A stretch of 64,000 nt of DNA from an uncultured Verrucomicrobiae bacterium (GTDB lineage: Bacteria > Verrucomicrobiota > Verrucomicrobiia > Palsa-1439): assembly GCA_963812605.1 (NCBI GenBank), contig CAWEWF010000014.1:605003-669002 (forward strand), written 5' to 3'. Shown here one piece after another: positions 4,800 through 42,519 of the stretch. Both the position numbers and the translations under genes were made by a program. Within the stretch, counting starts at the first letter, position 1; every line of letters begins with the position of its first letter. The notes beneath the pieces are model-generated. The model was not told where the DNA came from, did not search any database, and was given only the letters and a program-made list of their open reading frames with translations.

Positions 4800-4804
4800 G
4801 CCCT

Positions 4805-5255: not shown

Positions 5256-5399
5256 AAAAGATGTCTTCTGGAGCGGATGGGTTCAGCCAACTTCCAAGCC
5301 GTTAGCCCCCCCATAAGACAAGGCAAATTCCTCCGCTCTTGTTAGCCCGGCGGCCTCGCCAAGGCAGAAGCCTTGGCGACGGCGCATTTCGCTGCTAAG

Positions 5400-6254: not shown

Positions 6255-6326
6255 TCGCGCAGATCCGAAGCTCACGGACGCTGTGCGGCACTTGCCGATC
6301 GCGCTGCAAATCGCTAGGATACTCCC

Positions 6327-7796: not shown

Positions 7797-7958
7797 AAAA
7801 GTGTCGTATCTCGCAACTGAAAAAGGCTGGACAAAGCCGCCTGGCTCTGCTGTACTAACGGCGGTCTTTTGGGAAGCGCAGAAGCGAGTTTCGGGGTCGT
7901 TCCTGAGGTTGGTGACTTATGTCTCTTAAATCTCTCGGGTCAAACCCGCCGGCGTTTC

Positions 7959-7987
7959 GGCAGCATTGCGATGCTGCCTCTGTTTCC
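7959..7987 (+). terminator. Possible intrinsic terminator after the LMF-like gene
   Basis: GGCAGCAT-TGCG-ATGCTGCC hairpin followed by TCTGTTTCC. Confidence 0.35.
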
Positions 7988-8040
7988 ACCCTGCCATCAC
8001 GGATTCGCGTTTTTGGTTTCCGCTATGGTCAGAAACAGGT

Positions 8041-8625: not shown

Positions 8626-8629
8626 CACC

Positions 8630-13736: not shown

Positions 13737-13758
13737 TCGAATTTGTTTTGTTTCGCTT

Positions 13759-13862
13759 TGTAGGGCAAGCGCTCCGCTTGCCGCCGTTTCGATTCCTCTT
13801 GTAGGGCACGCAACCCGCGTGCCTTCTGCATATCAACGGCAACCGACGCGGTTGCCCTACAA
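13759..13862. repeat. Three REP units in the luxE-luxC intergenic spacer
   Basis: TGTAGGGCAAGCG-CTC-CGCTTGCC, TGTAGGGCACGC..GCGTGCC, and the inverted GGCAACCG-ACG-CGGTTGCCCTACAA. The last CTAC supplies the TAG stop of the LuxE-like gene (13857-13859). Confidence 0.8.
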
Positions 13863-15059: not shown

Positions 15060-16290
15060 GGGAAACGAAATCACCCAGTGCAGCCACGCAATAATCCAAT
15101 TGCCGTTTCGTGATCACCAGCGGGGGCGTGAGGCCAACGACTTCATTGCGGCTGCCTTCGGGCAGGGCGAGAACGCCACGCTGCAAAAACTTCTCAACGA
15201 CGGGAACCGCGTTGTCCACCTCGAGTCCGAGCATCAATCCCTGGCCACGCACCTTGCCGGTGCGGGCCAACCGCGTTGCGAGCCATTTCCCCAGTTCACG
15301 ACTGCGGGCTGCCAACTTGAGCCGCTTCATCTCTGCAATTGACGCCAAGGCCGCCGCGCAACCGAGCGGATTACCAAGAAATGTGCTGGTATGAATGGCC
15401 TCGCCTTGCGATTCCGGCCAGCTATCCATGACTTTCGCGCGACCGATGCACGCCGAAATCGGAAAGCCGCCCGCCATCGCCTTTCCCACACAAACGATGT
15501 CTGGTACCACCCCCGAATGTTCGCAAGCGAACCAACGTCCCGTCCGACAAAACCCCGTGTAGATCTCGTCGAGAATTAATAGCAACCCATGTTCATCGCA
15601 AAACCGCCGCAACTTCGGGAGAAAATCATCCGGCGGAACAACAATCCCACCGCGTCCCTGGATCGGCTCGGCGATCACTGCGCCGAAATCTTGAATATTC
15701 GCCACATCCGGCAAACGGCCAAACGGAACATGCGCGGTGAAGTGGCCCAGCTGCCCCGTGAAATGTGAACGGAAGTCCGCGCGCCACGTCGTGTCGAGCG
15801 CACCGTAGGTGAGTCCGTGATACGCGCCGTCGAACGCAATGACGCCGGGCCGGCGGGTGTGGATCACTGCTGTTTTGAGCGCGATTTCCACCGCCTCCGC
15901 GCCGGAATTCGCGAAGACAACGCGCGCTTCCGATTTGTCCCACCTCCCAAACGTCAGCGCCACCAATTCCCGCGCCAGCTTCAATTTTAATTCGTTCGGA
16001 TGCACGTCGCCCATCGCATGCAACAGCTTTCCCGCTTGCGCCTGGATGGCCGCTACCACGCGCGGGTTGGCATGACCGACACTTGCCACGCCAAACGCCG
16101 CCGTCAGATCGAGATAGCGGTTGCCATCGACATCCCACACATTGGCGCCCGCCGCGCGCTCCCAAAAGATCGGCCAGTGGTCGGACACGAAAGTAATGTT
16201 GCGGGATTCATACTGACGGAGTTGGTTGGCGAGGGCGCGGGACTTCAAGCCAGGGACGCGGGTCTTGAGAAGTGGCAGCAGATCTTTCAC
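15052..16290 (-). CDS. Class III (omega/acetylornithine-type) PLP aminotransferase
   Basis: GANVWDVDGNRYLDLTAAFGVASVGHANP, ANSGAEAVE, LLILDEIYTGFCRTG and VCVGKAMAGG (PLP lysine). GTG start. Confidence 0.85.
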   Translation of the reverse strand: MKDLLPLLKTRVPGLKSRALANQLRQYESRNITFVSDHWPIFWERAAGANVWDVDGNRYLDLTAAFGVASVGHANPRVVAAIQAQAGKLLHAMGDVHPNELKLKLARELVALTFGRWDKSEARVVFANSGAEAVEIALKTAVIHTRRPGVIAFDGAYHGLTYGALDTTWRADFRSHFTGQLGHFTAHVPFGRLPDVANIQDFGAVIAEPIQGRGGIVVPPDDFLPKLRRFCDEHGLLLILDEIYTGFCRTGRWFACEHSGVVPDIVCVGKAMAGGFPISACIGRAKVMDSWPESQGEAIHTSTFLGNPLGCAAALASIAEMKRLKLAARSRELGKWLATRLARTGKVRGQGLMLGLEVDNAVPVVEKFLQRGVLALPEGSRNEVVGLTPPLVITKRQLDYCVAALGDFVSHG

Positions 16291-16305
16291 AACAACGGCT
16301 TCATC

Positions 16306-16548
16306 CTAGCCGTGTCGGACGAACTTGTGAAACGTCTTGCCGGCTTCCTGGTCGACAAGCAGCACAAGCTGATTGGCTTTCATGGCTTCGACCAGTTCAT
16401 CAACGCTCAGGTTCTCGTAATCGACCTTGTCGCCATCGAAGAGAACGGCGAGATCACCGTCGGTATTGCGACGGCGCGCGGCCTGGCCGCTGCGTTCACC
16501 GATCCAACCACGAATTTGCGCGGACTTGATGATGATGCGTAGGGACAT
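16306..16548 (-). CDS. Hypothetical 80-aa protein
   Basis: An ATG at 16548 lies 11 nt downstream of a GAGGAG Shine-Dalgarno, between queE and the aminotransferase gene. No family recognised. Confidence 0.5.
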   Translation of the reverse strand: MSLRIIIKSAQIRGWIGERSGQAARRRNTDGDLAVLFDGDKVDYENLSVDELVEAMKANQLVLLVDQEAGKTFHKFVRHG

Positions 16549-16553
16549 GGTGC

Positions 16554-17201
16554 TTACACTCCTCGGGTTTCCGGCCCCCAAATCTGTTTGTGCCACTGGG
16601 TCTGCATGCGGACGGGCAGTCTATCCGCCAGAATCCATTCGGCAAGCGTTTTGAGCGTCAGCTCGCCCCAAACGGGCGAAAATAAAACGGTACAGACGTT
16701 TGCCAACTGATACTCGCCCATCATCTGCTTCGCCCAATCGTAATCCTGGCGGTCGGCAAGAACGAACTTCACCTCATCCTTTTTGTCGAGATGTCGAATG
16801 TTGTCGTAGAGGTTCTTCCCGACCTCGCCGCTGCCGGGGCATTTCAAGTCCATGATCTTCACCACGCGCGGGTCAACGCGCGACACATCCACCGAACCGC
16901 TCGTCTCCAGCAACACCCTTTTGCCCAGATCACAAAGCCGCGCCATCAAGGGGAAAACGTTTGGCTGCAACAAAGGCTCGCCACCCGTGATCTCAACCAG
17001 CGGGCAGTTGTATTCCAGCACTTTCACGATCACGTCACCGAGTTTCATCGGCGCGCCCTCGTGGAACGAATACGTTGTATCACACCACGTGCAGCGCAGA
17101 TTGCACGCGGTCAGCCGTACAAACACGCACGGCAACCCCGCAAACGAGGACTCGCCCTGGATGCTGTGAAAAATCTCGTTGATGACAAGCGTATCGGCCA
17201 C
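16554..17201 (-). CDS. queE: 7-carboxy-7-deazaguanine synthase (radical SAM)
   Basis: INEIFHSIQGESSFAGLPCVFVRLTACNLRCTWCDT is the characteristic QueE N-terminus with CxxxCxxC. GTG start. Confidence 0.9.
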   Translation of the reverse strand: MADTLVINEIFHSIQGESSFAGLPCVFVRLTACNLRCTWCDTTYSFHEGAPMKLGDVIVKVLEYNCPLVEITGGEPLLQPNVFPLMARLCDLGKRVLLETSGSVDVSRVDPRVVKIMDLKCPGSGEVGKNLYDNIRHLDKKDEVKFVLADRQDYDWAKQMMGEYQLANVCTVLFSPVWGELTLKTLAEWILADRLPVRMQTQWHKQIWGPETRGV

Positions 17202-26414: not shown

Positions 26415-26580
26415 CCCGGATGCTGTAATCTAGCACAGGTTGGGCCAATTCACCGTGGTGCGCTCGTCTCTGCAAGTCGGTGGTAGACACCGCCTTGACA
26501 AGGTTCGGCAATCCTGCTACGTAGATTGTGAAATTTGGAACAAGCGTTGGAGGGTTGGAAGCATTTTGACCGGTTACGTG

Positions 26581-26949
26581 ATGGATTCATACACAAACCA
26601 ATACCTGTTTATCATCGTGTTTTTCGCGGTCGCCGTGGGTTTTCCGCTGGCCCCGCTCATTATCGCGCGCCTGGTCGCGCCGCGCCGTCCCACGCCGTCA
26701 AAAAATGAGATCTATGAGTGCGGTTTGGTCTCCAAGGGCGATGCGTGGGTGCAGTTCCGGGTCGGTTACTACATCTACGCGCTAATGTATGTCATTTTTG
26801 CGGTCGAAACAGTGTTCCTGTACCCGTGGGCCGTCGCGTTTGGCGGGCTGAGCTTCGGAGCGTTCCTTGCCATGATGATTTTCGTATTGTTGCTCGTGGA
26901 AGGGCTCGTCTACGCGTGGGCCAAGGGCGCCCTGGATTGGAAGTCGTAG
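26581..26949 (+). CDS. nuoA: NADH:quinone oxidoreductase subunit A
   Basis: YECG and FAVETVFLYPWA motifs with three TM helices. ATG at 26581. Confidence 0.9.
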   Translation: MDSYTNQYLFIIVFFAVAVGFPLAPLIIARLVAPRRPTPSKNEIYECGLVSKGDAWVQFRVGYYIYALMYVIFAVETVFLYPWAVAFGGLSFGAFLAMMIFVLLLVEGLVYAWAKGALDWKS

Positions 26950-26958
26950 GATTTTGCC

Positions 26959-27604
26959 ATGGCAATTGACGAAGGACTAAAAAGCGAGCTTCAGAAACAG
27001 GGGATTTTCGTTCTCCCGTTCGAACAGCTTTATAATTGGGGCCGCAAATCCTCGATTTGGCCGCTGCAATTTGGCCTGGCGTGTTGCGCCATCGAGATGA
27101 TCGCCAGCGCCGCTTCGCGATATGATTTGGCCAGGTTCGGCGCCGAAGTTTTCCGCGCGACGCCGCGGCAGGCCGACTTGATGATCGTCGCGGGCACGGT
27201 CACCAAAAAAATGGCGCCGCAGGTTGTCCGCCTCTACAACCAGATGCCGGAACCGAAATACTGCATCGCCATGGGCGCGTGCGCGATCTCCGGCGGACCG
27301 TTCAAAGACGGCTACAACGTCTTGAAGGGGATCGACCGGTATATTCCCGTGGACGTGCACATTCCCGGTCTGTCCACCACGCCCGGAGGCGTTGATCCAC
27401 GCGATCATGACCTTGCAGCGCAAGATCGCGGACCAGCATCTTGAGAAGGACCAGCGACCACGGTGGTACGACAAGCACGCCGCCGCCGAGTACCCGATCC
27501 CGGCATTCGGCGAACATGATTTGCAACCGCCGGCCAATCGCGAAGTCTGGCAACCGCCGCGCGATTACCGCGACGTGACGTTGGAGGACGTGAAGAAGGG
27601 CTAA
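26959..27604 (+). CDS. nuoB: NADH:quinone oxidoreductase subunit B, with a 1-nt frame break at 27369-27370
   Basis: [11 protein letters not shown] and [11 protein letters not shown]. After VDVHIPG the sequence ggtCtgtccaccacgc shifts frame; removing one base restores [20 protein letters not shown] (ORF 27392..27604). Confidence 0.9.
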
Positions 27605-28201
27605 ATGGAAGCGATCGAAAAAATCAAAGAGATCGCCACGCAAGCCGTGCCAGCCGCGAAGATGGAAATCATTAACTCCACACCGGCGGCTCAGCAACCC
27701 GCGTTGCTCGTGGATCGCGAGCACATTTACGCGGTGGCGAAATTTCTCAAAGAAGACCCACGCTTTCAAATGGATTTCTGTTCGTGCGTCACCGCCGTCG
27801 ATTACCCAACCAAGGCCGACAAGCCCGGCGAGATTGAGGTCGTCTATCATTTGTACTCGGTCGCGCAGAAGCAGGGGCCCATCGTGCTCAAGGTGCGCGC
27901 GCCGCGCGAACTTGGCCAATGCCGCGTGCCGTCCCTGACGCCATTGTGGCGCGCGTGCGAATTCCAGGAACGCGAGGCCTACGATCTGTATGGTGTGAAG
28001 TTCGACGGACATCCTGATCTGCGGCGCATTCTGATGTGGGACGAGTTCACGGATTTCCCGATGCGCAAGGATTACGTGCCCCCGGCCGATTACGAGTGGG
28101 AACCGACCCCGCACGATGACACGCTGCAACGGGCCGTTCAAGAGGGCGGAATCATGCCGCCAACCGCGGTGGAAGAACTGGAGAGGGCGAAGAAGAAATG
28201 A
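27605..28201 (+). CDS. nuoC: NADH:quinone oxidoreductase subunit C
   Basis: [25 protein letters not shown] is typical of the 30-kDa subunit. Confidence 0.9.
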
Positions 28202-29364
28202 TCCAGCCGCTCACAGATGAGAAGCCGTACACGTTGACGCCGGGTTCCGACGGCGTGATCGAGACCCAGACGCTGGAAGTCTCCATCGGGCCGCAACACC
28301 CGAGCACGCACGGCGTGTTCCGCATGGACTGCGTGCTGGACGGCGAAGCGGTTGTCGCGCTCAAGCCCGTCATGGGCTACCTGCATCGCAATCACGAACA
28401 ACTGGCCGAGCGCATGGCGTGGCTGGGATCGATGCCGTACACCGACCGGCTCGATTATTTCAATTCCATGACCAACAACTGGGCGTACGCGCTGGCCGTC
28501 GAGAAGCTCGCGGGCATCAAGGTCCCCGACCGCGCCGAATATATCCGCGTGATCATGTCCGAACTGACGCGCCTGCTGAATCACTCGTGTGTGATCGGCT
28601 TCATGTTGCAGGACCTCGGCGCCTGGGGCACGCCCTTGCTCTATGCCTTCCGCGAACGCGAGCGGATCCTCGATCTATTCGAAGCCGTCAGCGGCTCGCG
28701 CATGATGTGCAATTACATGCGGTTCGGCGGCGTGCGCGTGAACATGACCGATGAAAACCTGGCGACGGCAAAGGATATTGCCACCCGTTTCCCCAGATTC
28801 TTGGATGAGTTTGAGAAATTACTCACGAACAATGAGGTACTGCTCGCCCGCACGCAGCGCGTCGGCACTCTGCCGAAGGAATTGGCGATCAACGCCGGCA
28901 TCAGCGGCCCGATGGCCCGTGCCAGCGGCGTGGAGTACGATGTTCGCAAGGTGGACAAATACGGCGTGTACGGACGCCTTGATTTTCGCGTGCCGCTGGG
29001 TGAAATCGGCGACGTGTACGACCGTTACTACATTCGCGTGCTGGAGATGCGCGAGAGCATCAAGATTTTGCAGCAGGCGCTACGCGATATTCCACAAGGC
29101 CCGCACATCGCGCCCGAGGTAAAGTTGCGCAATTTCAAGATCCCGCCCGGCGATGGTTACGGCCGGATCGAGGGACCGAAGGGCGAGCTGGGGTTTTATC
29201 TCGTTTCGGACGAAGGCGGCAAACAGCCGTACCGCTACCATGTGCGCCCGCCGAGCTTCGTCAACCTGACGGTTCTTGAAGACATGTGCATCGGTCACAA
29301 GGTGGCTGACGTCGTGGTCATTCTGGGCAGTGTGGATATCGTGTTGGGGGAGGTGGATCGCTAA
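28198..29364 (+). CDS. nuoD: NADH:quinone oxidoreductase subunit D
   Basis: [24 protein letters not shown] and [26 protein letters not shown]. Confidence 0.95.
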
Positions 29365-30428
29365 TGGGCTTTATTGGCAAAGGTTTGTTCGAAGGCATGG
29401 TCGTGACCGCCCGCAACTTCGTGGGTAGTTATTTCGACAAGGAACGCCTCGTGACCGTCCAGTATCCCGAGGAGCGCGTCCAGGTTCCCGAAAATTCGCG
29501 CACGTTTCCCTTCCTCGTGTTCGACGCGGACAAAGATCCCATCGGCACGATGCGTTGCGTGGCCTGCAAGATTTGCGAAGTGGAATGTCCGCCGCAGTGC
29601 ATTTACATCGTCATGGACCGCGACGAGAAGGGCAAACCGCTGCAGCGCCCGAAGGTGTTCGACATCGACATCAGCGTTTGCATGCAGTGCCAGATTTGCG
29701 TGGAGGTCTGCCCGTTCGACGCGATCAAGATGGACAACAATTACGAGAAGTCGCAGTACGGGCGCTTCAATGAACTCGTCGAGCATTTGCCCCAGTTGCT
29801 GCTGTCCAACGAATACTATAACAAGATCAAGCCGACGGAGGCTTCCGCCGTCGATGCGAAGCTGAAAATTGAGGCGGAAAAGAAAGCCAAGAAAGCTGCG
29901 CCGGCCGGGGCGAAACCCGCGGCGCCAGCGCCCAAGCCGGCCGCTCCCGCAGCGCCGAAGCCCGTGTCAGCGCCTGCACCGATGGCGAGAGTCGCGATTC
30001 CAGATGACGCACCGTTTACGCCCGAACAACGCCAATGGCTCAGCGGATATCTCGCCGCCGTCGGAGGTTCTGGTGGCGCGGGCGTCGCTCCCGCAGCCGC
30101 AGTTCCAACCGCCGAAGCGGCGGTAGCGGAAGCCGCGCCAGTGACCGAGGCTGCACCCGCCGCCGAAGCGCCAGCGGGTGGCTGGCCGTGGCACGACCCG
30201 GGACTCGGGATGCAGCAGCGGCTCGATTTGGCAAAGGACACGCCCATTGCCGACAAGCTGATGGCCGCCATGGCACAGACCGATTGCCATGCCTGCGGTT
30301 ACGACTGTCGTGGCTATGCGGATGCGATTGCCACGGGTGCGGAGACCGATTTGTCACTCTGCCTGCCAGGAGAAGCGGAAACTGCCAACATGCTCAAGAA
30401 GCTGATGCAGGAGGCAGGAAAGTTGTAA
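29364..30428 (+). CDS. nuoI: NuoI-type 2x[4Fe-4S] subunit fused to an Ala/Pro-rich linker and a C-terminal RnfB-type 4-Cys (PF04060-like) domain
   Basis: CVACKICEVECPPQCI and CMQCQICVEVCPFDAI in a NuoI-like context (VTVQYPEE). The linker is KKAAPAGAKPAAPAPKPAAPAAPKP. It is followed by PFTPEQRQWLSGYLAAV and MAQTDCHACGYDCRGYADAIATGAETDLSLCLPG. Confidence 0.8.
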   Translation: MGFIGKGLFEGMVVTARNFVGSYFDKERLVTVQYPEERVQVPENSRTFPFLVFDADKDPIGTMRCVACKICEVECPPQCIYIVMDRDEKGKPLQRPKVFDIDISVCMQCQICVEVCPFDAIKMDNNYEKSQYGRFNELVEHLPQLLLSNEYYNKIKPTEASAVDAKLKIEAEKKAKKAAPAGAKPAAPAPKPAAPAAPKPVSAPAPMARVAIPDDAPFTPEQRQWLSGYLAAVGGSGGAGVAPAAAVPTAEAAVAEAAPVTEAAPAAEAPAGGWPWHDPGLGMQQRLDLAKDTPIADKLMAAMAQTDCHACGYDCRGYADAIATGAETDLSLCLPGEAETANMLKKLMQEAGKL

Positions 30429-30528: not shown

Positions 30529-31758
30529 ATGGACCAGGTTTACAAAGTCGCGCCACAATTATTGAAGTTTCTGTCGTACCTGCTGGGGTGGTTGCCCTGG
30601 ATCGGGAAGCCCGTTGCCGGTTTCCTGTCCAACCCGCCGGAATGGTTCCTCCTGGCGGTGGCGATTGCGGTTCCCATCCTCTTTGTCGTTGCCGTGTTCC
30701 CCGGTATTTTTGCCTACACTACGCTCGTTGAACGCAAGGCGCTCGGTCGCATCCAGAACCGCATCGGCCCGAATCGCGTTGGCCGTTGGGGCCTCCTCCA
30801 GCCGATCGCGGACGGCGTAAAATTGCTGACCAAGGAAGACATTGTTCCGCGGAGCGCCGACAAGTTCGTCCATTTCTTGGCGCCAGTCGCCGCAGTGATC
30901 CCATCGGTACTACTTTTCTCGGTGGTGCCCATCGGTGTGGGATTGGTCCCGGTGAATCTCAACATTGGCCTCCTGTTTGCCTTCGCCATCAGTACCGCGA
31001 GCGTGCTGGCGCTATTCATGGGCGGCTGGGCGTCACGCAACAAGTTTTCATTGCTCGGCGCGATGCGCGCGGTGGCCCAGGTCATTTCCTATGAAGTTCC
31101 GATGGTGCTGGCAGCAGTAGCAGTGGTGATGGCCACCGGCTCACTCTCGACCCTGGCCATCGCGAGGGCGCAGAGCGGCGGGATCGTCAATGTCTCGCAC
31201 TGGTTCGTTTTCCGTCCGTGGGGATTTGTCGGATTTGTGCTCTTCACGATTGGCGCGATGGCGGAGTCGGCGCGCACGCCCTTTGACATTCCCGAGGCGG
31301 AATCCGAAATCATCGCTGGCTATCACACCGAGTACAGCGGCTTCAAGTTCGCGCTCTTCCAACTCGGCGAGTATCTCGCGTCGATTGCCATGGCGGGCAT
31401 CACCGTCACCATGTTCCTCGGCGGCTACAACGGTCCCGGCAGCGGCCCCGGTTTCCTGGGCGGCCTGATTTCCATCTTTTGGTTCTTTTCCAAGCTGGGT
31501 TGCATGATCGTGTTGACCATTTGGATCCGCGGCACCTGGCCGCGGGTGCGGGTCGACCAGTTGATGAGCTTTGCGTGGAAGGTGCTGCTGCCCATGTCGA
31601 TCGTTAACATCATCGCCGTCGCAATGTGGCATTACATAACCATACGGCCCGTCGCCTGGATCGTGACCACGTTGTGGCTTGTCCTTTGGTTCATCACGCT
31701 CTCCAAGCTCGCGGCCACCGAGAACGTCGAAAAACGGGAATACCGGTACGCCTCCTGA
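30529..31758 (+). CDS. nuoH: NADH:quinone oxidoreductase subunit H
   Basis: LVERKALGRIQNRIGPNRVGRWGLLQPIADGVKL and GYHTEYSGFKFALF. Confidence 0.95.
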   Translation: MDQVYKVAPQLLKFLSYLLGWLPWIGKPVAGFLSNPPEWFLLAVAIAVPILFVVAVFPGIFAYTTLVERKALGRIQNRIGPNRVGRWGLLQPIADGVKLLTKEDIVPRSADKFVHFLAPVAAVIPSVLLFSVVPIGVGLVPVNLNIGLLFAFAISTASVLALFMGGWASRNKFSLLGAMRAVAQVISYEVPMVLAAVAVVMATGSLSTLAIARAQSGGIVNVSHWFVFRPWGFVGFVLFTIGAMAESARTPFDIPEAESEIIAGYHTEYSGFKFALFQLGEYLASIAMAGITVTMFLGGYNGPGSGPGFLGGLISIFWFFSKLGCMIVLTIWIRGTWPRVRVDQLMSFAWKVLLPMSIVNIIAVAMWHYITIRPVAWIVTTLWLVLWFITLSKLAATENVEKREYRYAS

Positions 31759-31763
31759 TTGCC

Positions 31764-32282
31764 ATGGAAATCGCCTTCTGGATTCTTTCCGCAATCACCG
31801 TCATGGGCGCAATCCTGGCCATCTCCTTGCGCAACGTCATGCACTGCTTGCTATCGCTTATCCTTTTCTTCTTCGGCATTGCCGGTCATTACTTCCTGTT
31901 GCACGCGGAATTCCTGGGAGGAATTCAGATCCTCATCTACATCGGCGCGGTCGCGGTGCTGATCGCGCTGGCCACCATGCTCACCCGGCACATTACGGGC
32001 GAAGAAGGGCCGCGCGAAGTGCTCGGCGGCAAATGGTGGGCGGGCATGGGGACCGCGGCCATTATTGCCGGCCTGTTGTGGGCGATTATTCGCAGGGACG
32101 AGTTGGCTCAATTGCTGCCGACCGCAGCCGCCAACATATCGTATGCGGCGATGGTGGGAGACCTTGGCCGGGCGCTGGTTGTGGACTGGGTCGTGCCGTT
32201 TGAGGCGCTGGCCGTGCTGCTGACGGCGGCGCTCATTGGCGCAGTGGTCATCGCCATCGAAGAGGTCATCCGCAAACGATGA
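31764..32282 (+). CDS. nuoJ: NADH:quinone oxidoreductase subunit J
   Basis: MEIAFWILSAITVMGAILAI..AEFLGGIQILIYIGAVAVL. The ATG at 31764 lies just after the nuoH stop. Confidence 0.9.
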   Translation: MEIAFWILSAITVMGAILAISLRNVMHCLLSLILFFFGIAGHYFLLHAEFLGGIQILIYIGAVAVLIALATMLTRHITGEEGPREVLGGKWWAGMGTAAIIAGLLWAIIRRDELAQLLPTAAANISYAAMVGDLGRALVVDWVVPFEALAVLLTAALIGAVVIAIEEVIRKR

Positions 32283-32590
32283 ACGTCTCCTTGGAACATT
32301 ACCTGATGCTCTCGGCGTTCCTGTTCGCCATCGGCCTGTGCGGCGCACTCGCGCGCAAGAATGCCATCATCGTCTTGATGGGCATCGAGATCATGTTCAA
32401 CGCGGGCATCCTGAATTTTGTCGCGTTCTGGCATTATAAGTACTTCGCGTCGCTGACGGCGCAGGTATTCGCCATCTTCGCGATTTCCATCGCCGCCGCC
32501 GAATCGGCGGTGGGCCTGGCCCTGGTGATTGCAGTCTACAGGCACTACCGATCGGTGGACCTCGATGAGATGAGGAGTTTAAAGGGCTAG
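32279..32590 (+). CDS. nuoK: NADH:quinone oxidoreductase subunit K
   Basis: 103 aa with three TM helices and AAAESAVGLALV. ATGA overlap with nuoJ. Confidence 0.9.
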   Translation: MNVSLEHYLMLSAFLFAIGLCGALARKNAIIVLMGIEIMFNAGILNFVAFWHYKYFASLTAQVFAIFAISIAAAESAVGLALVIAVYRHYRSVDLDEMRSLKG

Positions 32591-34663
32591 ATGAGCGAAG
32601 CCCGGTACATTGACGAGTTGGCCAGGCAACAATGGTTGATTCCGTTTTTCCCGCTGGTGGCCGCGGCCATCCAGTCGCTCCTGAAGCGCCCGCAACGAAA
32701 GCTCTCCGCAACATTGACCATTGGCGCGATGGGCTTGTCCTGCATTTTTGCGCTGCGCGCCTTTTTCGCCACACTCGGGGGCGGCGAGCATCCGGAAGTC
32801 CAGCCGGGGATCTGGAATTTCACCTGGTTCAAATTCGGCACCACCAGCCTCGATCTGGGGCTTATCCTTGATCCGCTGACGGCGGGCATGGCAGTCATGG
32901 TGACATTCGTCGGCTTCTGGATTTTCGTCAACGCCACGGGTTACATGGACCATGACGAGAATTTTACCCGGTTTTTCTGTTTCCTGTCGCTCTTCGCCGC
33001 TTCCATGTTGGGTCTGGTCATATCCAATAATCTGTTGCTCCTGTTCATGTGTTGGGAACTGGTCGGCTTGTGCAGTTACCTCCTCATCGGCTTTTGGTAT
33101 TTCAAGCCGGCGGCAGCGGCAGCCATGAAGAAAGCGTTTATCACCACCCGCATCGGCGACGTTGGATTCTTCCTCGGCATACTGATGCTGTACTGGAAGA
33201 CGGGCACATTGAATTTGTACGCGACGGACGGCACGGGAGCGTTGCAGCAGGCCGGCAGCCTGGCCCACCTGGCAGGCTGGTGGGGGTTGTCCGCGGCGAG
33301 CACCATCGCCTTTCTGCTCTTCATCGGCGCGATGGGCAAGAGCGCGCAATTCCCGTTGCATGTGTGGTTGCCGGACGCGATGGAAGGCCCGACGCCCGTG
33401 AGTGCTTTGATTCACGCCGCAACCATGGTTGCTGCCGGCGTGTTCATGGTGGGCCGCATGTACCCCTTGTTCACGGCGGAGCCGGGCGCCTGGGTGATGG
33501 ATTTTGTGATGTGGATCGGCTGTTTTACGGCGGTCTTCTCAGCGACGATTGCGGTGGCGCAGAATGACATCAAACGCGTACTGGCCTATTCCACCTGTTC
33601 GCAGCTCGGCTTCATGATGATGGCCCTGGGCGCCGGCAATCTTGTGGCCGGACAATTTCATCTACTAACCCACGCGTTCTTCAAGGCGTTATTGTTCCTG
33701 GGTTCCGGTTGCGTGATTATCGGCACGAACCATGAGCAGGACATGCGTAAAATGGGCGGATTGCGCAAGTATATGCCGATCACCTTCGTCTGTTACGTCA
33801 TCGGCACGCTGGCACTGGCGGGCTTTCCACTGACAGCGGGTTTTTTCAGCAAGGACGAAATCCTGCTGGCTACATTTCATCGCAACCGGTTCGCCTGGGG
33901 CCTGGCGACGTTTGCCGCATTCCTGACGGCGTTCTATATGACGCGGCAGATTTTCATGGTGTTCTTCGGTCGCTGGCGTGGGGGCCGGCCCGAGGAACAT
34001 CCCCACAGTAAGCACGCTGAAGCCCACGGGCGAGTCGATGATCCTCATGGGCACAGCCATTCTGACGAACCCCGTGAAGTTCCCTGGAATATGTGGCTGC
34101 CGATCGCGGTCCTGAGCGTCTTCGCGTTGTTTATGGGCTTCGGCCACGGTTTCTTTCAGCATTACATCGCCCCGGAAGAAGCTGCGCCGGAACACAGCGA
34201 CATGGTGCTCTGGCTCTCGATCGGCGTCGGGCTGCTGGGTATTTTCCTCGGTTGGGTGGTCTACGGGCGCAAAACGATGGAACACGCCACCGACCCTGAT
34301 CCATTGGCGGTGACCCTGGGAGGACTGTTCACATTCCTAAACCGCAAGTGGTACATCGACGAATTTTATGAAATGACCGTTTTTCCGTTCACAGCCGCGT
34401 GTGCCATGTTTTGTCGCCTGTTCGACAAACTCGTGGTCGATGGCTTTTTACACGCGATCGTCTTTATTGCGACGGCGATCTCTTTGATCTTTAGCGGGGT
34501 GGGGGACGGATTTTTCATCAACGGCGGCTTTGACGCCAGTTGCGAAAGCGTGCGCCTGGGCGGGAAGGTCCTCGCGAAGTTGCAGAGCGGACGCGTACAG
34601 AATTATTTCCGTGTCTTGAGTCTCGGGGCGGCAATCTTGTTGCTGGTTTACTTCTTCACATGA
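32591..34663 (+). CDS. nuoL: NADH:quinone oxidoreductase subunit L, long form (690 aa) with an extended lateral-helix region
   Basis: MCWELVGLCSYLLIGFW and KSAQFPLHVWLPDAMEGPTPVSALIHAATMV. There is a His-rich loop (EEHPHSKHAEAHGRVDDPHGHSHSD). About 27 extra residues lie between VVDG and LQSGRVQNY relative to typical NuoL. Confidence 0.9.
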   Translation: MSEARYIDELARQQWLIPFFPLVAAAIQSLLKRPQRKLSATLTIGAMGLSCIFALRAFFATLGGGEHPEVQPGIWNFTWFKFGTTSLDLGLILDPLTAGMAVMVTFVGFWIFVNATGYMDHDENFTRFFCFLSLFAASMLGLVISNNLLLLFMCWELVGLCSYLLIGFWYFKPAAAAAMKKAFITTRIGDVGFFLGILMLYWKTGTLNLYATDGTGALQQAGSLAHLAGWWGLSAASTIAFLLFIGAMGKSAQFPLHVWLPDAMEGPTPVSALIHAATMVAAGVFMVGRMYPLFTAEPGAWVMDFVMWIGCFTAVFSATIAVAQNDIKRVLAYSTCSQLGFMMMALGAGNLVAGQFHLLTHAFFKALLFLGSGCVIIGTNHEQDMRKMGGLRKYMPITFVCYVIGTLALAGFPLTAGFFSKDEILLATFHRNRFAWGLATFAAFLTAFYMTRQIFMVFFGRWRGGRPEEHPHSKHAEAHGRVDDPHGHSHSDEPREVPWNMWLPIAVLSVFALFMGFGHGFFQHYIAPEEAAPEHSDMVLWLSIGVGLLGIFLGWVVYGRKTMEHATDPDPLAVTLGGLFTFLNRKWYIDEFYEMTVFPFTAACAMFCRLFDKLVVDGFLHAIVFIATAISLIFSGVGDGFFINGGFDASCESVRLGGKVLAKLQSGRVQNYFRVLSLGAAILLLVYFFT

Positions 34664-36247
34664 GCCCCCACACGACACTGCCCATCTTGTCGCTCATCAC
34701 GTTTGCCCCGCTGGTTGGCGCGGCGCTGGTGCTGTTGCTCCCGAAAGACAGCAAGGGCGCAATCAAAATGGTAGCGCTGTTCGCCACCCTCGTCTCGCTC
34801 TTGCTGACGCACATCGTCTGGCACCATTTCGATCCGAACGCCGGGCTGATGTTCGAGGAGCGGTCGGCGTGGATTCCGGCCATGAACATCGATTATCACC
34901 TCGCCGTGGACGGCCTCAGTATCACGATGGTTTTGTTGACGGCGATCATCATGCCGCTGGCGCTGCTGGCGTCGTGGAAACAGGAGCGCAATGTGAAGTT
35001 GTTTTTCCTGCTGTTCCTCCTGCTCGAGACGGGAATGTTTGGCGTTTTCACCGCGCTCAATTTCTTCCACTGGTTCATCTTCTGGGAATTGGGCCTGATC
35101 CCGATGTTCTTCCTCATCCGAATCTGGGGCGCGGAAGACCGCACCTATGCATCCTTCAAATTCTTTCTCTACACGCTGGCTGGCAGCGTGGGAATGCTGC
35201 TGGCGTTTGCGTTCATCTATCTCGCGACCAATTCCCTTGATTTTATTGACCTGCGGCAGAAGGCCGCATCGGGCGAGCTGGCCGTGGCGCTGGGAAAATT
35301 TGTTGAGGGTATTAACACGCATATTGGAATGCAGGTCAATCCGACGAAATTCGCCTCGTTGCTGTTTTGGGCCACCTTTCTCGGTTTTGCGATCAAAGTG
35401 CCGATCTGGCCGTTTCACACGTGGTTGCCGGACGCCCACACCCAGGCACCGACGGGCGGTTCCATGGTCCTCGCCGCGATCCTGCTGAAGATGGGCGTCT
35501 ATGGTTTCCTGCGGATCGTATTGCCGATTTTTCCGTATCAAGTGCAGGCGCACGTCAACGCGTTGTTATTGCTGGCCTTGGCCAGCATCGTGTTCGGCGC
35601 CTATGCCGCGCTGGCGCAGACCGATTTCAAGCGGCTCGTCGCATATTCCTCCGTGAACCATATGGGCTATGCGATGCTCGGTATTTTCGTGACCGTCGCC
35701 ACCGCAGCCAACGTGACGGACATCGTCAATGAGAAAGCTGCCGCACTTAACGGGGCGATGTTACAGATGTTCAACCACGGCATCAGCTCGGCGGCGTTGT
35801 TCTTTCTGGTCGGCGTCATCTACGAACGCACCCACACGCGCAAACTGGAAGAGTACGGCGGGCTGCGAAAGATCATGCCAATCTACGCGGGGGTGCTGGG
35901 CATCTCCATGTTCTCGTCGCTGGGGCTGCCCGGGCTTGAACGGCTTTGTGGGCGAATTTCTCGTGTTCAAAGGCGCATTCCCCATCGTCCCGCTGGTCAG
36001 TTCGCTGGCAACCATCGGCTTGGTCATCACCGGCGTGTTCCTGCTCGGTATGATGCAAAAGGTTTGCTTTGGCCCGCTCAACCAGAAGTGGAAGGGGCTT
36101 TCCGACATGAACACGCGCGAGATTTGCATCATCGCCGTACTGATGTTCTTCATGTTCTGGATTGGCCTCTATCCCGGGCCGTTACTCAATGCTTCCAATA
36201 AGGCTGTATTGCAACTGGTGGATTTGTTCCAGAACCTGGGACACTGA
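34660..36247 (+). CDS. nuoM: NADH:quinone oxidoreductase subunit M, with a 1-nt frame break near 35930-35939
   Basis: MSPHTTLPILSLITF.., NIDYHLAVDGLSITMVLLT and WLPDAHTQAPTGGSMVLA. After SSLGLPG the frame shifts; the correct continuation LNGFVGEFLVFKGAFP is in ORF 35729..36247. The break lies at a CCCGGG run. Confidence 0.9.
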
Positions 36248-36254
36248 CGAAAAT

Positions 36255-37780
36255 ATGCAGGTTGATTGGACAATTTATCTGACGTTCCTCGGCGCGGGCC
36301 TGATCCTGCTGTTGCCGCGTGACTCGAAGAACCTTATCCGCTGGGTCGCGCTGTTGACCGGCGTGGCCGCCCTGCTTGTCGGCCTGAAGAATTACTTCGA
36401 CTACAATGCGTGGGTGAACGCGGAGCTCGCCGCGCATAACGGCAAGCTGGTGGATGGTTTCCAGCAGATCGTGAATGTCTCCTGGATTCCCGCGCTGAAT
36501 GTGAACTACCACCTGGCGGTTGACGGCATCAGTTATCCCCTCGTCGTTTTGAACGGCTTCGTGTGTGTGACGGGAATCCTTTTCAGTTGGAATATCGAGA
36601 ACCGGGTCAAGGAGTTCTTCGCGTTCTTCCTGACGCTGATCGCCGGCGTTTACGGCGTGTTTATGTCGATGGATTTGTTCCTGCTATTTGTGTTTTACGA
36701 ATTGGCGATCATCCCGAAATACTTTGTCATCGCGATCTGGGGCTCAACTCGCAAGGAGTACGGCGCGATGAAGCTGGTGTTGTACTCTTTCGTGGGCAGC
36801 GCGCTCGTGTTCATCGGCATTCTTGCCGTCTACTTCAGCGCCGGTGGGCAAACCTTCGACATCCTCGAACTCATCAAGCACCCGCTGGCACCGGAGGTGC
36901 AGATTTGGGTATTCCCGCTGATCTTCGTCGGTTTCGCGGTCCTGGCGGGCATGTGGCCATTGCACACGTGGGCGCCGACGGGCCACGTGGCTGCGCCGAC
37001 GGCAGCTTCCATGCTGCTGGCGGGCGTCGTGATGAAGCTTGGCTCGTATGGTTGTTTCCGCGCAGCCATGCTTTTGTTTCCGCAGGGTCTCGAAGCCTGG
37101 AAGTGGTGGATTGCGATATTGGCGGTCATTGGCATCGTCTATGGCGCGGCGGTGGCGCTGGTGCAGAAGGACTTCAAGTTCATCATCGGCTACTCCAGCG
37201 TCAGTCACATGGGCTTTGTGCTTCTGGGACTGGCGACACTCAACGTCATGGGCATGTCGGGCGCCGTCCTGCAGATGTTTTCCCACGGCATTATCGCCAG
37301 CCTGTTGTTCGCGGTGGTCGGTCGCATGGTTTACGACCGCACCCACACGCGACAGTTGGATGAACTGGGCGGACTGGCCAAGGTGATTCCTTTTGCGTGC
37401 GTCACCTTCGTGATCGGCGGCGCGGCCTCCATGGGCATGCCGGGCTTTAGTGGATTTGTCGCCGAATACCAGATTCTCGCCGGCGCTTTTCAAATGCATC
37501 CGCTGCTGGCTCTGGCCGCCGGCCTCAGCATCCCGATCACCGTTGCGTACATTCTCAACGCAAACAACAAGGTATTCATGGATCGGGATGTGCCGGCCGG
37601 CGGACATGGACACGGTCACGGCTCTGGGAGCGGTTCGCATCCGCCACTGCCCCCGATTACGCTGCCGGAGCGCGTTGCCGCAATCATCCTGATGGCATTG
37701 CTGGTGATCGTCGGATTGTGTCCGTCGATCATGCTCAACATGATCAAGGCCAATATCGAATTGTTTTTGCGGGGTGGGCG

Positions 37781-37784
<4 letters not shown>
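36255..37784 (+). CDS. Second NuoM-type antiporter-like subunit
   Basis: NVNYHLAVDGISYPLVVLN, HTWAPTGHVAAPTAASMLLAGV and GYSSVSHMG follow the NuoM/ND4 pattern, which is distinct from NuoN. There is a His/Gly-rich loop (GGHGHGHGSGSGSH). Confidence 0.85.
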
Positions 37785-39280
<1,496 letters not shown>

Positions 39281-39335: not shown

Positions 39336-40199
39336 ATGAACATTGACGGCTCAACAACGATTGTCGGGATTTTCGGCGCGCCGATCAGGCACACCGCTTC
39401 GCCCGCGATGCACAACGCCGCTTTCGCGGCGCTCGACATGAATTGGGCGTACCTGGCGTTCCACGTCGAGCCACAGAATTTGCGCTCGGCGTTGCGGGGC
39501 GCGGGCGATATGGGGATTGTCGGCATCAATTTGACGGTCCCGCACAAGATCCTCGCCCTCGACTGGATCGATGACATCGACGCCGAAGCTCGCAAGCTCG
39601 GCGCCGTCAATACCGTCTCCATGGAGAAGGGGAGACTGCGCGGGTACAATACCGACGGCTATGGGTTTCTCAAGGCGATTAAAGAGGACTTCAACCTGTC
39701 CATCAAAGGCAAACGCGTGCTGGTACTCGGCGCCGGCGGGGCAGGGCACGGGATCGCCGTAAAATGCGCGCTGGACGGGGCTGCCCGGGTGATCGTGGCC
39801 AACCGCACGCCTGCCCGGATTGAACCAATCGCGCAGGAGGTCCGCGGTACAAAAACGGAGTTTCTGGCTCTCAAACTGGCCGCGGAGCATATCCGCAAGG
39901 TCATTCACGAGGTGGATCTGGTGGTGAACGCCACATCTGTGGGATTGGAAGAGCACGATTCGCTGGGGCTTGGCGCCGATCTTTTTTCGCCGCGCCTGCA
40001 TGTGTACGACACGATTTATCGTCCCGCGGAGACGGAGCTGCTGCGTGTCGCCGAGAGCGCGGGCGCGAAAGTCGCCAACGGATTGAGCATGTTGCTGCAC
40101 CAGGGCGCGAAAGCGTTTGAAATCTGGACCAAGCGCAAGGCGCCGCTGGCGGTCATGCGCCGGGCGTTGCGGGCGGCCATCTACGGGGACAAAGCGTGA
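39336..40199 (+). CDS. aroE: Shikimate dehydrogenase
   Basis: GIFGAPIRHTASPAMHNAAF, NLTVPHK, NTDGYGF and VLGAGGAG. Confidence 0.9.
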   Translation: MNIDGSTTIVGIFGAPIRHTASPAMHNAAFAALDMNWAYLAFHVEPQNLRSALRGAGDMGIVGINLTVPHKILALDWIDDIDAEARKLGAVNTVSMEKGRLRGYNTDGYGFLKAIKEDFNLSIKGKRVLVLGAGGAGHGIAVKCALDGAARVIVANRTPARIEPIAQEVRGTKTEFLALKLAAEHIRKVIHEVDLVVNATSVGLEEHDSLGLGADLFSPRLHVYDTIYRPAETELLRVAESAGAKVANGLSMLLHQGAKAFEIWTKRKAPLAVMRRALRAAIYGDKA

Positions 40200-41384
40200 C
40201 CGGGCTTCAGCTCTATATTGATTTCATCGTCTTCTCATTTGGCGCGGTCATTGGCAGCTTTCTTAATGTCTGCATCCACCGGATGCCCCTGGATCAGTCC
40301 ATCGTGTTCCCGCCGTCCCACTGTCCGCACTGCAACCAGCGCATCCGCTGGGCCGACAACATTCCGCTCTTCAGTTACCTGGCGCTGGGGCGCAAGTGCC
40401 GCAACTGTGGCGCGAAAATCACTGCGCGGTATTTCCTCGTGGAACTCCTGACCGCGGTGTTGTTCCTGTTGATGTGGCTGAAACTGACGCAGTGGGCCAA
40501 CCCGCCACTGCACGGCGTTTATCTGCTAAAAGCGCCGATCTATTGGATGGTCATCGCCGGCCTGATCGTGGCCACGTTTATCGACTTTGAGCATTACATT
40601 ATCCCCAACGAGATTACGTTCGGCGGAATCCTGGCGGGGTTGTTCCTGAGCGCGGTTTATCCGCCGTTGCAGCCCAACGATATGGTGACGTCCCTCGATA
40701 CTGAAGCTTATGCCAATCTCAATGCCAGCGTGGAGCGCGGGGCTGTTCCGATCCCTCTTTGGGGTACTGGTGGGTGGATTTGTGCTTCTCGCCATTGCTG
40801 AGTTTGGCAAGCTCCTGTTTGGGAGATTACGCGTGAAACTGCCGCCGGACGCGACGGTCATTATCGCTGATGGCAAGCTCAAATTGCCTGACGAAGAAGT
40901 CGATTGGCCCGATCTTTTCTTTCGGGATTCCGACAAGATACGTTTTCAGGCCACGTTCCTGAATTTTGGCGACAAGCAATTCACTGATGCGACCGTAATC
41001 GTGCAGGAAGATTCAATCACGATAAACGACGAGCACTATCCTTTGGCGGGCACCGGAATCATCGAAGCGAAGACCAGCGAGATCGTGATCCCACGGGAAG
41101 CCATGGGATTTGGAGACGTGAAATTACTGGCGGGTATCGGCGCATTCCTGGGCTGGGAAGCGACCTTGTTTTCCCTGTTCCTTTCGTCGGCGGTAGGCGC
41201 GGTGGTGGGTCTGGCGTTGATTGTGATTGGGAAAAAGGACCTGCAAGGGAAGATCCCCTATGGGCCGTATATCGCCCTGGGCGCGCTTGTCTGGCTCTTT
41301 GCAGAAGACCAACTTCTTGCTATCATGGCCACGTATTTGGAAAATGTGAAAGACCTCCTGACATTGATATTCAGTAGAGGATAG
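40196..41384 (+). CDS. pilD: Prepilin peptidase (A24 family), with a 1-nt frame break near 40737-40740
   Basis: GSFLNVCIHRMP, CPHCNQRIRWADNIPLFSYL..CRNCGAKI and MGFGDVKLLAGIGAFLGW. The two ORF-track pieces (40196..40801 and 40710..41384) join if one G of a GGGG run is removed. GTG start. Confidence 0.85.
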
Positions 41385-41387: not shown

Positions 41388-42519
41388 ATGCCGCAACTGC
41401 GTTACTTCACCGCAGGCGAATCGCACGGCCAATGCCTGATTGGCGTAGTCGAGGGGCTGCCGGCCGGCCTGAAACTGGATCGCGCCGCCATCAATCGCGA
41501 TCTCGCGCGCCGCCAGCAAGGCTACGGGCGCGGCGGTCGCATGAAGATCGAGGCGGATGAAGCGGAGATCGTCTCGGGCGTGCGCCATGACGAAACGATT
41601 GGTTCACCCGTCACCTTGATGGTGAAAAACCGCGACTTCAAAATCAACGAACTCGCCGGCCGTCACGAAACCACGTCCCGGGCATGCCGACCTTGCGGGT
41701 GTTATCAAGTATGACCGCCAGGACGCTCGGGACATTCTCGAGCGCTCCAGCGCGCGGGAAACCACGATGCGCGTGGCCATTGGTGGTGTCTGCAAGCTGT
41801 TGCTCGCAGAGGTCGGCGTCGACATCGTCGGTCACATCGTCAGCCTTGGTACGGTGCAGGCGAAGACAGACGGGCTGACGTTTGCCCAAATCCGCGAACG
41901 CAGCGAAGCGAGCGAAGTCCGCTGCGCCGATCCCGAAGCCGAGAAAAAAATGGTCGAGGCGATTGACGCCGCCAAGGGGCAGGGGGATACGATCGGCGGC
42001 GTGTTTGAAGTGATCGCGGTCGGCGTCCCGATTGGCCTCGGCAGCCACGTTCATTGGGACCGGAAACTCGACGCGAACCTCGCCCGCGCCTTGATGAGTA
42101 TCCAGGCCATGAAAGGTGTCGAGGTTGGACTCGGATTTGAGGCCGCGCGACGCTTGGGCTCACAGGTCCACGACGAAATCCTGCCGGCGCAGGACGGCGT
42201 CTTCACCCGCGCGGGCAATAATGCCGGGGGTTTTGAAGGCGGCATGACCAATGGCCAGCCAGTCGTCGTTCGCGTCGCCATGAAACCCTTGTCCACGCTC
42301 ATGAAACCGATGCGTTCGGTGGACATTCAGACGGGGCAGGAAGTAAAAGCCACCGTGGAACGCTCCGACGTCTGCGCCACGCCGGCGGCGGCGGTCATTG
42401 GGGAAGCGGTCGTCGCGGTCGAGTTGGCGAAGGCGTTGCTGGACAAGTTCGGCGGCGACAGCGTGCGCGAGCTAAAGCGCAATGTGGAAAGTTACCGCCA
42501 AGCTTGTCAGCGGTGGTAG
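41388..42519 (+). CDS. aroC: Chorismate synthase, with a 1-nt frame break near 41655-41668
   Basis: [21 protein letters not shown] and [15 protein letters not shown]. The motif [34 protein letters not shown] is read in the frame of ORF 41767..42519. Confidence 0.9.

Follow-up and report, generated by a model that had tools for sequence, protein, structure and literature searches.

A verrucomicrobial NuoI subunit fused to an RnfB-type Fe-S domain in a complex I operon without nuoEFG

The nuo operon and its NuoI fusion protein

The stretch of DNA analysed here (64 kb, hereafter the window) comes from an uncultured Verrucomicrobiae bacterium and contains an operon for complex I in which the nuoI gene is extended by a sequence encoding an RnfB-type Fe-S domain. 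Pfam and NCBIfam models give the order nuoA-B-C-D-I-H-J-K-L-M-M-N, as the initial annotation had read it, followed by aroE. The nuoD, nuoI and nuoH genes are contiguous; no gene other than the fusion gene separates nuoD from nuoH, and its start codon ATG shares one base with the stop codon of nuoD (TAATG). With the same models, no second nuoI is found between nuoH and nuoJ or elsewhere in the window. The genes nuoE, nuoF and nuoG are found neither in the operon nor among the larger open reading frames (ORFs) of the window; both absences had been proposed before and are borne out. They are also missing from the 10-kb flanks of related nuo loci, and the larger ORFs of the window encode no ferredoxin or FNR-type protein.

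The gene content, nuoA-D and nuoH-N without nuoEFG, is that of an 11-subunit complex I, and the same is true of the 48 verrucomicrobial loci described below. Besides NuoL and NuoN, two NuoM-type subunits are present, as in the 2M type; their TIGR01972 scores are 439 and 465 bits, while NuoN reaches 407 bits on TIGR01770. The nearest solved relative of NuoL (690 amino acids, aa) is cyanobacterial NdhF1 (6hum_F, E=5e-145). NuoL is about 27 aa longer than NdhF1, the excess lying beyond the aligned region; it may or may not correspond to the insertion of about 26 aa reported for the lateral helix of NuoL in 2M enzymes. By its gene content, the window enzyme is a complex I lacking the N-module and having an extra NuoM, known as NUO11+M (PMC4758237), and is of the 2M type (PMC9040806).

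The ORF of the fusion gene encodes 354 residues, the first 159 of which form a NuoI core with both cluster-binding motifs intact (Cys65, 68, 71 and 75, followed by Pro76, and Cys106, 109, 112 and 116, followed by Pro117). All eight cysteines are invariant in the orthologues. Residues 64-120 match Fer4_7 (35.9 bits, with a cutoff of 27), while the match to the NuoI model TIGR01971 (E=2.6e-25, 88.4 bits) stays under its cutoff of 113. The closest relatives of the core in the PDB are all NuoI/TYKY chains, with E. coli NuoI at the top (7awt_I, E=4.6e-19). A Lys-rich helix with a net charge of about +3 follows. Its counterpart in E. coli NuoI, by alignment, is the C-terminal tail, the part in contact with NuoG, NuoE and NuoF (PMC8357420). 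The alignment suggests that the tether leaves NuoI on the side that the absent N-module would occupy. The helix was also considered as a ferredoxin-docking patch, an idea we downgraded because the aligned E. coli tail has a structural role.

Beyond the helix, the extension comprises about 176 aa (residues 179-354), less than the 200 or so first estimated; counting the Lys-rich helix as its first part, it has five parts (helix, linker, motif, linker and Fe-S domain) rather than three. The two linkers are 62% alanine and proline. Among orthologues their lengths vary from 19 to 54 aa (median 31) for the first and from 27 to 58 aa (median 39) for the second, always in frame. In the AlphaFold2 (AF2) model, residues 182-207 and 236-270 of the linkers have a predicted local distance difference test score (pLDDT) below 50. 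The Fe-S domain (pLDDT 76-94) and the helix predicted for the motif at residues 220-234 (pLDDT 86) are modelled confidently, while the model of the NuoI core is poor (pLDDT 30-45), its alignment being shallow. Low confidence and composition of the linkers together suggest that the Fe-S domain is mobile and that the protein resembles beads on a string, with two flexible linkers.

The Fe-S domain contains four cysteines (Cys308, Cys311, Cys315 and Cys333, nucleotides 30285-30362), all invariant in orthologues, so that one of the refuting conditions named in the initial annotation does not apply. Residues 305-335 match PF04060 with 26.0 bits, above the gathering score of 23, so the four-cysteine module is RnfB-like as first proposed, albeit with a spacing of CX2CX3CX17C instead of the CX2CX4CX16C of RnfB. 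The rnfB model TIGR01944 is matched at positions 22-89 alone (E=1e-15, 57.8 bits, below the cutoff of 68.7). A PDB search with the single sequence of the C-terminal 154 aa gave nothing except low-complexity noise; a profile was needed. Built from 26 diverse carriers of the domain, it hits RnfB chains of solved Rnf complexes in their N-terminal [4Fe-4S] domain, and the four cysteines all align (8ahx_B, E=4.7e-4; 7zc6_B, E=0.011). The domain is acidic, with a median net charge of -5, and most likely binds one [4Fe-4S] cluster. RnfB itself, however, has an N-terminal membrane helix, ferredoxin domains following the four-cysteine domain and accompanying rnf genes, none of which is present here. 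We therefore rejected an identification of the fusion protein as RnfB, given its score below the TIGR01944 cutoff and its nuo context. Some fragments have wrongly been named RnfB by JGI; other database names are NuoI and "4Fe-4S dicluster domain-containing protein".

A CysJ-like N-terminal module, a resemblance to which the initial annotation had noted, is also confirmed: positions 8-146 of the NF004859 model ("sulfite reductase subunit alpha") are matched by residues 206-353 with E=3.4e-45. The whole protein scores 154.7 bits on this model, far from the cutoff of 432, and has no FAD_binding_1 or NAD_binding_1 domain. Judged by these matches, it shares the N-terminal module of the NF004859 family without being a member; it is a NuoI that has only modules in common with RnfB and with the NF004859 flavoproteins.

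Table 1. Genes of the nuo operon, parts of the NuoI fusion protein and related nuo-linked Fe-S proteins. Positions refer to the window unless a locus is named.
Feature	Position	Strand	Basis or remark
nuoA	26440-26949	+	Pfam Oxidored_q4; start codon uncertain
nuoB	26959-27444	+	Pfam Oxidored_q6
nuoC	27605-28201	+	Pfam Complex1_30kDa
nuoD	28198-29364	+	Pfam Complex1_49kDa
nuoI fusion gene, 354 aa	29364-30428	+	ORF translation; >120 full-length orthologues
NuoI core, residues 1-159	29364-29840	+	Fer4_7, TIGR01971, PDB match 7awt_I
NuoI cluster motifs, two CxxCxxCxxxCP (clusters N6a, N6b)	29556-29588 and 29679-29714	+
Lys-rich helix, residues 160-178 (AVDAKLKIEAEKKAKK)	29841-29897	+	common to fused and unfused verrucomicrobial NuoI
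Linker 1, residues 179-210, Ala/Pro/Lys-rich	29898-29993	+	alignment, AF2
Leader/docking motif (putative), residues 211-232 (AIPDDAPFTPEQRQWLSGYLAA)	29994-30059	+	conservation, AF2, hhalign
Linker 2, residues 233-273, Ala/Pro/Glu-rich	30060-30182	+	alignment, AF2
Acidic Fe-S domain, residues 274-354	30183-30425	+	PF04060, NF004859, rnfB TIGR01944, RnfB profile match
nuoH	30529-31758	+	Pfam, NCBIfam
nuoJ	about 31626-32282	+	Pfam, NCBIfam
nuoK	32279-32590	+	Pfam, NCBIfam
nuoL, 690 aa	32591-34663	+	Pfam, NCBIfam
First nuoM	about 34540-36201	+	Pfam, NCBIfam
Second nuoM	about 36162-37784	+	Pfam, NCBIfam
nuoN	about 37718-39280	+	Pfam, NCBIfam
Fe-S proteins of about 250 aa (P0338, P0345, P0336)	L059 10001-10756, L060 10001-10726, L062 2709-3461		nuo-operon end

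Conservation, distribution and loss of the fusion

A search of 5.8 billion proteins yielded more than 120 full-length homologues from independent contigs, 317-376 aa long and 64-91% identical; those with a taxonomic label are all from Verrucomicrobia. In a scan of one genome per species, 48 verrucomicrobial nuo loci were found, about 30 of which carry the fusion. Every sufficiently complete locus has the order A-B-C-D-I-H-J-K-L-M-M-N-aroE, with or without the NuoI extension, and nuoI precedes nuoH in all 48, including those with a plain NuoI. The I-before-H order is thus not linked to the fusion, and the position of nuoI at the usual site of nuoEFG, noted in the initial annotation, has no bearing on it. 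Like the second nuoM, which the sufficiently complete loci have in common whether fused or not, this order is a trait of the whole phylum.

When 22 and 66 orthologues are aligned, two islands stand out as invariant, IPxDAPFTPEQRxWLSGFL in the motif and WPWHD...AAMAQTDCHACGYDCRGYADAIA...LCLPGEAET in the Fe-S domain. Even between lineages whose modules share no more than about 50-60% identity, the domain keeps its four cysteines and about 60 other positions unchanged, a pattern of purifying selection rather than decay. Two divergent fusions (loci L053 and L054), about 57-59% identical overall, share the synteny of the others. A cluster encoding a LuxC-like acyl-CoA reductase, a LuxE-like acyl-protein synthetase, a class-III aminotransferase and a radical SAM protein is also syntenic: it lies directly upstream of nuoA in L053 (2667-7312) and about 9 kb upstream in the window (12435-17201, minus strand).

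The fusion sequence was found in public runs from peat, soil and permafrost. An unbroken contig from a wetland metatranscriptome runs from the core into the motif (corresponding to 29709-30043) and a second one covers the Fe-S domain, showing that the gene is transcribed in situ in wetland; a 3.4-kb DNA contig from a public run extends from the extension into nuoH. It could be asked whether misassembly, read-through or a gene-calling error has joined nuoI to a downstream gene, as two genes downstream of the operon are split by frame changes and the assembly is not error-free. Such an artefact is practically impossible: the same uninterrupted ORF recurs in more than 120 protein clusters and, across separate studies, in about 30 species-level genomes. 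Individual contigs of RNA and of DNA span the fusion, and the linkers vary in length yet stay in frame. The extension is therefore genuine. One locus that seemed to have a split gene (L048) is in fact a fusion with a masked run of N.

In a tree of NuoD, the fusion occupies one large verrucomicrobial branch, within which it is patchy, and is absent from the branch of metagenome-assembled genomes (MAGs) labelled Opitutaceae, Haloferula and Verrucomicrobiaceae. In a peat-bog MAG (L025, 10440-10700), comparison with L013 and L010 shows that about 470 nucleotides have been cleanly deleted, and with them the motif, the linker and the Fe-S domain; what is left of the 3' end of nuoI can still be recognised, but is out of frame. 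The module is frameshifted or degenerate in L026 and L031, and L027, L028 and several deeper lineages have plain NuoI tails. Since the trees are neighbour-joining trees of single proteins and long-read errors may account for some of the frameshifts, it is uncertain how often the module was lost. Fused or not, every verrucomicrobial NuoI examined has the Lys-rich helix and a low-complexity tail rich in Ala, Pro, Lys and Glu, which in the unfused proteins (L035 and L038-L047) is 20-70 aa long.

Several other genes of the window may be mentioned. An 808-aa triple fusion (64-2490) combines HemC (porphobilinogen deaminase), a TP_methylase domain of the uroporphyrinogen-III methyltransferase type and HemD (uroporphyrinogen-III synthase). 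A 1237-aa protein (8615-12328) contains multicopper oxidase domains, DUF7901 and three PKD domains, and a gene for a redoxin of the AhpC/TSA family (7966-8625) lies just upstream of it. The genes for a prepilin peptidase of family A24 (40196-41384) and for chorismate synthase (41388-42519) are each split into two ORFs in different frames, which makes them either pseudogenes or the result of frameshift errors in the assembly.

Relatives and origin of the module

When the C-terminal 154 aa were used as query in an exhaustive search, 539 representative proteins were found. Most of these are 520-585 aa long and begin with the module, after which come FAD_binding_1 and NAD_binding_1; from this architecture, they are CysJ proteins with the Fe-S domain in place of the flavodoxin domain. 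The flavoprotein P0149 is a true member of NF004859 (680 bits, with the cutoff of 432). Its AF2 model (pLDDT 86, predicted template modelling score 0.77) consists of a helix, a disordered linker, the Fe-S domain, another disordered linker and the FNR body, and its best Foldseek matches are entries of the E. coli sulfite reductase flavoprotein (9c91_A, E=4e-42; 6efv; 1ddg). These Fe-S-type CysJ flavoproteins (NF004859 or PRK06214), whose labelled members come mainly from Planctomycetes and Abditibacteriota, share with the window protein the leader, an Ala/Pro tether and the four-cysteine PF04060 domain. They differ in having the module at the N-terminus of the FNR body, whereas in the window it is at the C-terminus of NuoI, with neither FAD_binding_1 nor NAD_binding_1. 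On sequence grounds, the module of NuoI is a copy of that of the Fe-S-type CysJ (sulfite-reductase) flavoproteins.

The module also occurs in other arrangements. In P0269 (984 aa), the Fe-S domain is placed between a siroheme reductase and an FNR body. In three loci, a stand-alone gene for the module lies between the NIR_SIR and FAD/NAD genes, except that in one of them (L051, about 4100-8022) it is continuous with the upstream ORF, siroheme protein and carrier sharing one reading frame; here, an assimilatory nitrate-reductase-like gene is next. Domain architecture and gene neighbourhood thus suggest that the module is a ferredoxin-like carrier linking siroheme enzymes to an NAD(P)H reductase of the FNR type.

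The motif that precedes the Fe-S domain in NuoI opens the Fe-S-FNR flavoproteins, the stand-alone Fe-S carriers, the headless FNR proteins and the siroheme proteins. It is invariant across the family of Fe-S-FNR flavoproteins, strongly conserved in the main clade of NuoI fusions, and absent or degenerate in the all-in-one fusion P0269. In the split systems it takes the form F[ST]xEQ[RK]x[WY]LxGF. All three proteins of the split system of L049 (4297-7848) begin with a version of it (FSEEQKLYLQGF in the siroheme protein, APFTPEQRAYLNGF in the carrier and APFSPQQRAWLDDL in the FNR protein), and in L051 it is present on the siroheme protein and the carrier.

A profile of the motif aligns with residues 26-46 of E. 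coli CysJ (hhalign probability 87%, E=4.2e-6), and BLASTP finds 8 identities in 16 positions with the CysJ leader (E=3e-4; FTPEQRQWLSGYLAAV is the aligned segment of the window protein). Tyr229 and Leu230 of the window protein (Phe and Leu in most orthologues) fall opposite Tyr39 and Phe40 of CysJ, both of which are critical for assembly of the CysJ octamer; this assembly requires the first 52 residues of CysJ, which are also enough to bring it about, even on a heterologous protein (bioRxiv 10.64898/2026.04.08.717228). In E. coli sulfite reductase, the haemoprotein binds the flavoprotein via its own N-terminal 80 residues (PMC11195156). The N-terminus of E. coli CysJ consists of a helix and then an Ala/Pro tether, matching the layout of the NuoI extension. 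As the match is short, the motif and the CysJ leader are probably, but not certainly, homologous. Similarity over about 20 residues, together with the context, leads us to infer that the motif may be a co-assembly tag, which on NuoI would recruit leader-bearing partners. The E. coli sulfite reductase flavoprotein thus resembles the window protein in its assembly leader, its Ala/Pro tether and its mobile one-electron carrier domain. Its carrier, however, is an FMN flavodoxin attached to an FNR domain, whereas here it is an Fe-S domain attached to complex I, and oligomerisation is putative.

The same Fe-S domain is tied to complex I in a second way. Proteins of about 250 aa have an N-terminal domain of their own, an acidic linker and the Fe-S domain of the NuoI fusion, without the motif. 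The loci concerned are L056/L059 (a planctomycete MAG), L058/L060 and L062, and in three of the four loci examined the protein is encoded by the last gene of a nuo operon; P0335 (L061), a protein of the same family, does not adjoin nuo genes. The operons of L059 and L060 read nuoB-C-D-H-I-J-K-L-M-N, with nothing between nuoD and nuoH and thus without genes for the N-module. In a tree of the Fe-S domain, the NuoI-fused and these "12th-gene" versions group together against those associated with sulfite reductase (bootstrap 75/100). The complex I-associated domains have the signature AAMAQTDC[HT]ACGYDCxGYA...PGxxET, versus AAMAQLDCGxCGYxC...PGGxxT in the sulfite-reductase-associated ones, and both the fused and the 12th-gene domains have QTDC[HT]ACGYDC...PGExET. 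The planctomycete-type proteins are not part of NuoI but stand-alone polypeptides that begin with a domain of their own, continue with an acidic linker and have no CysJ-type leader. They are candidate 12th subunits and represent a second, independent linkage of the domain to N-module-less nuo operons. These two separate genetic attachments are the strongest evidence that the Fe-S domain works with the enzyme. No description of the 12th-gene protein was found in the searchable literature.

A possible electron input to complex I without nuoEFG

Complex I without NuoEFG is present in Bacteroidota, Chlorobi, many anaerobes and other groups; its electron donor is a long-standing open question, for which attempts to find a common donor have failed (PMC11238625). 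For the window enzyme, the best reading is that the NuoI extension is a tethered one-electron carrier at the vacant N-module site, feeding cluster N6a, which we judge to be evenly balanced between true and false. The Fe-S domain would be a built-in, tethered ferredoxin, anchored on the face normally occupied by NuoEFG; it would take single electrons from a soluble donor and hand them to N6a, from where they would pass via N6b and N2 to the quinone. The native contexts of the module, which are those of a carrier, and the nuo linkage of the 12th-gene proteins speak for an electron-input device, as the initial annotation had supposed. Its further proposal of a non-NADH donor would need changing if the partner is a CysJ-type FNR protein, as the ultimate donor would then be NAD(P)H, and so not strictly "non-NADH". 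Such a partner belongs to a more specific version, tentative and on the unlikely side, in which the leader of NuoI co-assembles with a CysJ-type FNR flavoprotein. The conserved helix on NuoI would pair with the same helix on the flavoprotein, and electrons would run from NAD(P)H via FAD and the tethered cluster to N6a.

The cluster might instead be reduced directly by free ferredoxin or by ferredoxin-reducing enzymes, such as a hydrogenase or an enzyme of the PFOR type (pyruvate or 2-oxoglutarate:ferredoxin oxidoreductase), with no FNR flavoprotein; the complex would then be a ferredoxin-type:quinone oxidoreductase. The 11-subunit enzymes are generally thought to use ferredoxin or flavodoxin (PMC11238625). 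The likeness of NuoL to NdhF1, a subunit of the ferredoxin-dependent NDH-1, is in line with this, and the extra NuoM pump subunit would fit a lower-potential donor with more driving force. Also in favour of this reading are the lack of an FNR gene near any nuo locus, the survival of the Fe-S domain after the motif in P0352 and the complete lack of the motif in the planctomycete 12th-gene proteins. Wherever a partner can be read outside nuo operons, from neighbourhood or fusion, however, the module pairs with an FNR-type flavoprotein. The strong conservation of the CysJ-like leader in the main fusion clade suggests a leader-bearing partner, and no linkage to PFOR or hydrogenase genes was seen; we regard direct reduction by ferredoxin or its reductases as fairly unlikely. 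The direction of electron flow could also be the opposite. The proton gradient would then drive electrons backwards to the cluster, which would pass them on to an enzyme recruited by the leader, either a siroheme sulfite or nitrite reductase that bears the motif or some other ferredoxin-dependent enzyme. A siroheme reductase with the same N-terminal motif is indeed the native acceptor of the module, and it has been proposed that a second NuoM favours reverse electron transport onto carriers of low potential (PMC9040806). Against this, no siroheme reductase gene is linked to any nuo locus, and the planctomycete 12th-gene version lacks the motif that would recruit such an enzyme. The hosts are peat and soil Verrucomicrobia, which we take to be heterotrophs with no obvious need for reverse flow. 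Electron output is thus very improbable.

A role outside catalysis would explain why the module has repeatedly been lost from loci in which the nuo genes look intact, and why unfused relatives already have Ala/Pro tails. The extension might serve assembly or stability, sense redox state or oxygen, cross-link complexes through its helix, or be the decaying relic of a chance fusion in low-complexity Ala/Pro-coding DNA. The tail of E. coli NuoI purely stabilises the arm (PMC8357420), and the CysJ leader is an oligomerisation element (bioRxiv 10.64898/2026.04.08.717228). The invariance of the four cysteines and about 60 other positions in otherwise divergent modules, the independent recruitment of this domain, as a gene of its own, to other nuo operons and the expression of the fusion gene in situ make a non-catalytic role quite improbable. 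For the tethered carrier, too, there are observations that weigh against it. The rest of the nuo operon looks intact in loci in which the module is deleted, frameshifted or absent, so the enzyme evidently works without it and the module is accessory, not an obligatory sole entry point. Part of the extension predates the module, as unfused NuoI proteins also have Lys-rich and Ala/Pro tails, and in the most divergent fusion, P0352, the motif is decayed with the Fe-S domain intact. The similarity of motif and CysJ leader involves about 20 residues. Cluster binding, a suitable redox potential and contact with N6a are predictions, the AF2 model of the core being too poor for an estimate of the distance to N6a. 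Finally, no partner gene was found near any nuo locus: genes for FNR-like proteins, siroheme reductases, ferredoxins or other motif-bearing proteins were found neither in the 64-kb window nor within 10 kb of the collected nuo loci, where tblastn and a six-frame motif scan returned the motif of NuoI itself as the sole match. When a headless motif-FNR protein was the query, the few taxonomically labelled homologues were from Abditibacteriota, Chloroflexi and Planctomycetes, with no verrucomicrobial relative among them.

Compared with known enzymes, the window complex is like NUO11, NUO11+M and 2M complexes in having nuoA-D and nuoH-N without nuoEFG, a second nuoM, a long NuoL and all Q-module clusters, and shares with the whole NUO11 class an unresolved electron donor (PMC11238625). 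It is unlike them in the gene order D-I-H, as opposed to D-H-I, and in the tethered Fe-S domain and CysJ-type leader of its NuoI. Methanogen Fpo with FpoF is another example of a complex I core fed by something other than NuoEFG. Input by other routes is likewise known for cyanobacterial NDH-1, with its ferredoxin site of NdhS/V/O, and for Campylobacter NuoX/Y with flavodoxin (PMC11238625). These systems use separate docking subunits or soluble carriers, whereas here the carrier is covalently attached to NuoI. The lipoyl domains of the E2 component of 2-oxo acid dehydrogenases are swinging arms on Ala/Pro-rich linkers. They, too, are small cofactor domains on long and variable linkers of this composition, although cofactor and chemistry differ. 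No description of a NuoI-Fe-S fusion, or of a NuoI with a tethered Fe-S domain and a CysJ-type leader, was found in the searchable literature.

The fusion makes the donor question of 11-subunit complex I experimentally approachable, as the answer may be partly written in the genes: a carrier with a known native partnership sits on the entry subunit. Natural deletion variants are available for comparison, and L025 is a natural "knock-out" useful for comparative genomics. The fusion also illustrates the modular evolution of electron-input modules and, if the motif is indeed homologous to the CysJ assembly leader, documents the movement of this leader between unrelated enzyme systems. If NuoI does co-assemble with an FNR flavoprotein, the pair would be a non-homologous, modular substitute for the NuoEFG N-module, and the "11-subunit" complex I with an extra pump subunit would become an NAD(P)H:quinone oxidoreductase. 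The planctomycete 12th-gene protein would then represent another solution, reached independently with this Fe-S domain at its centre. The organisms concerned are abundant in peat, soil and permafrost.

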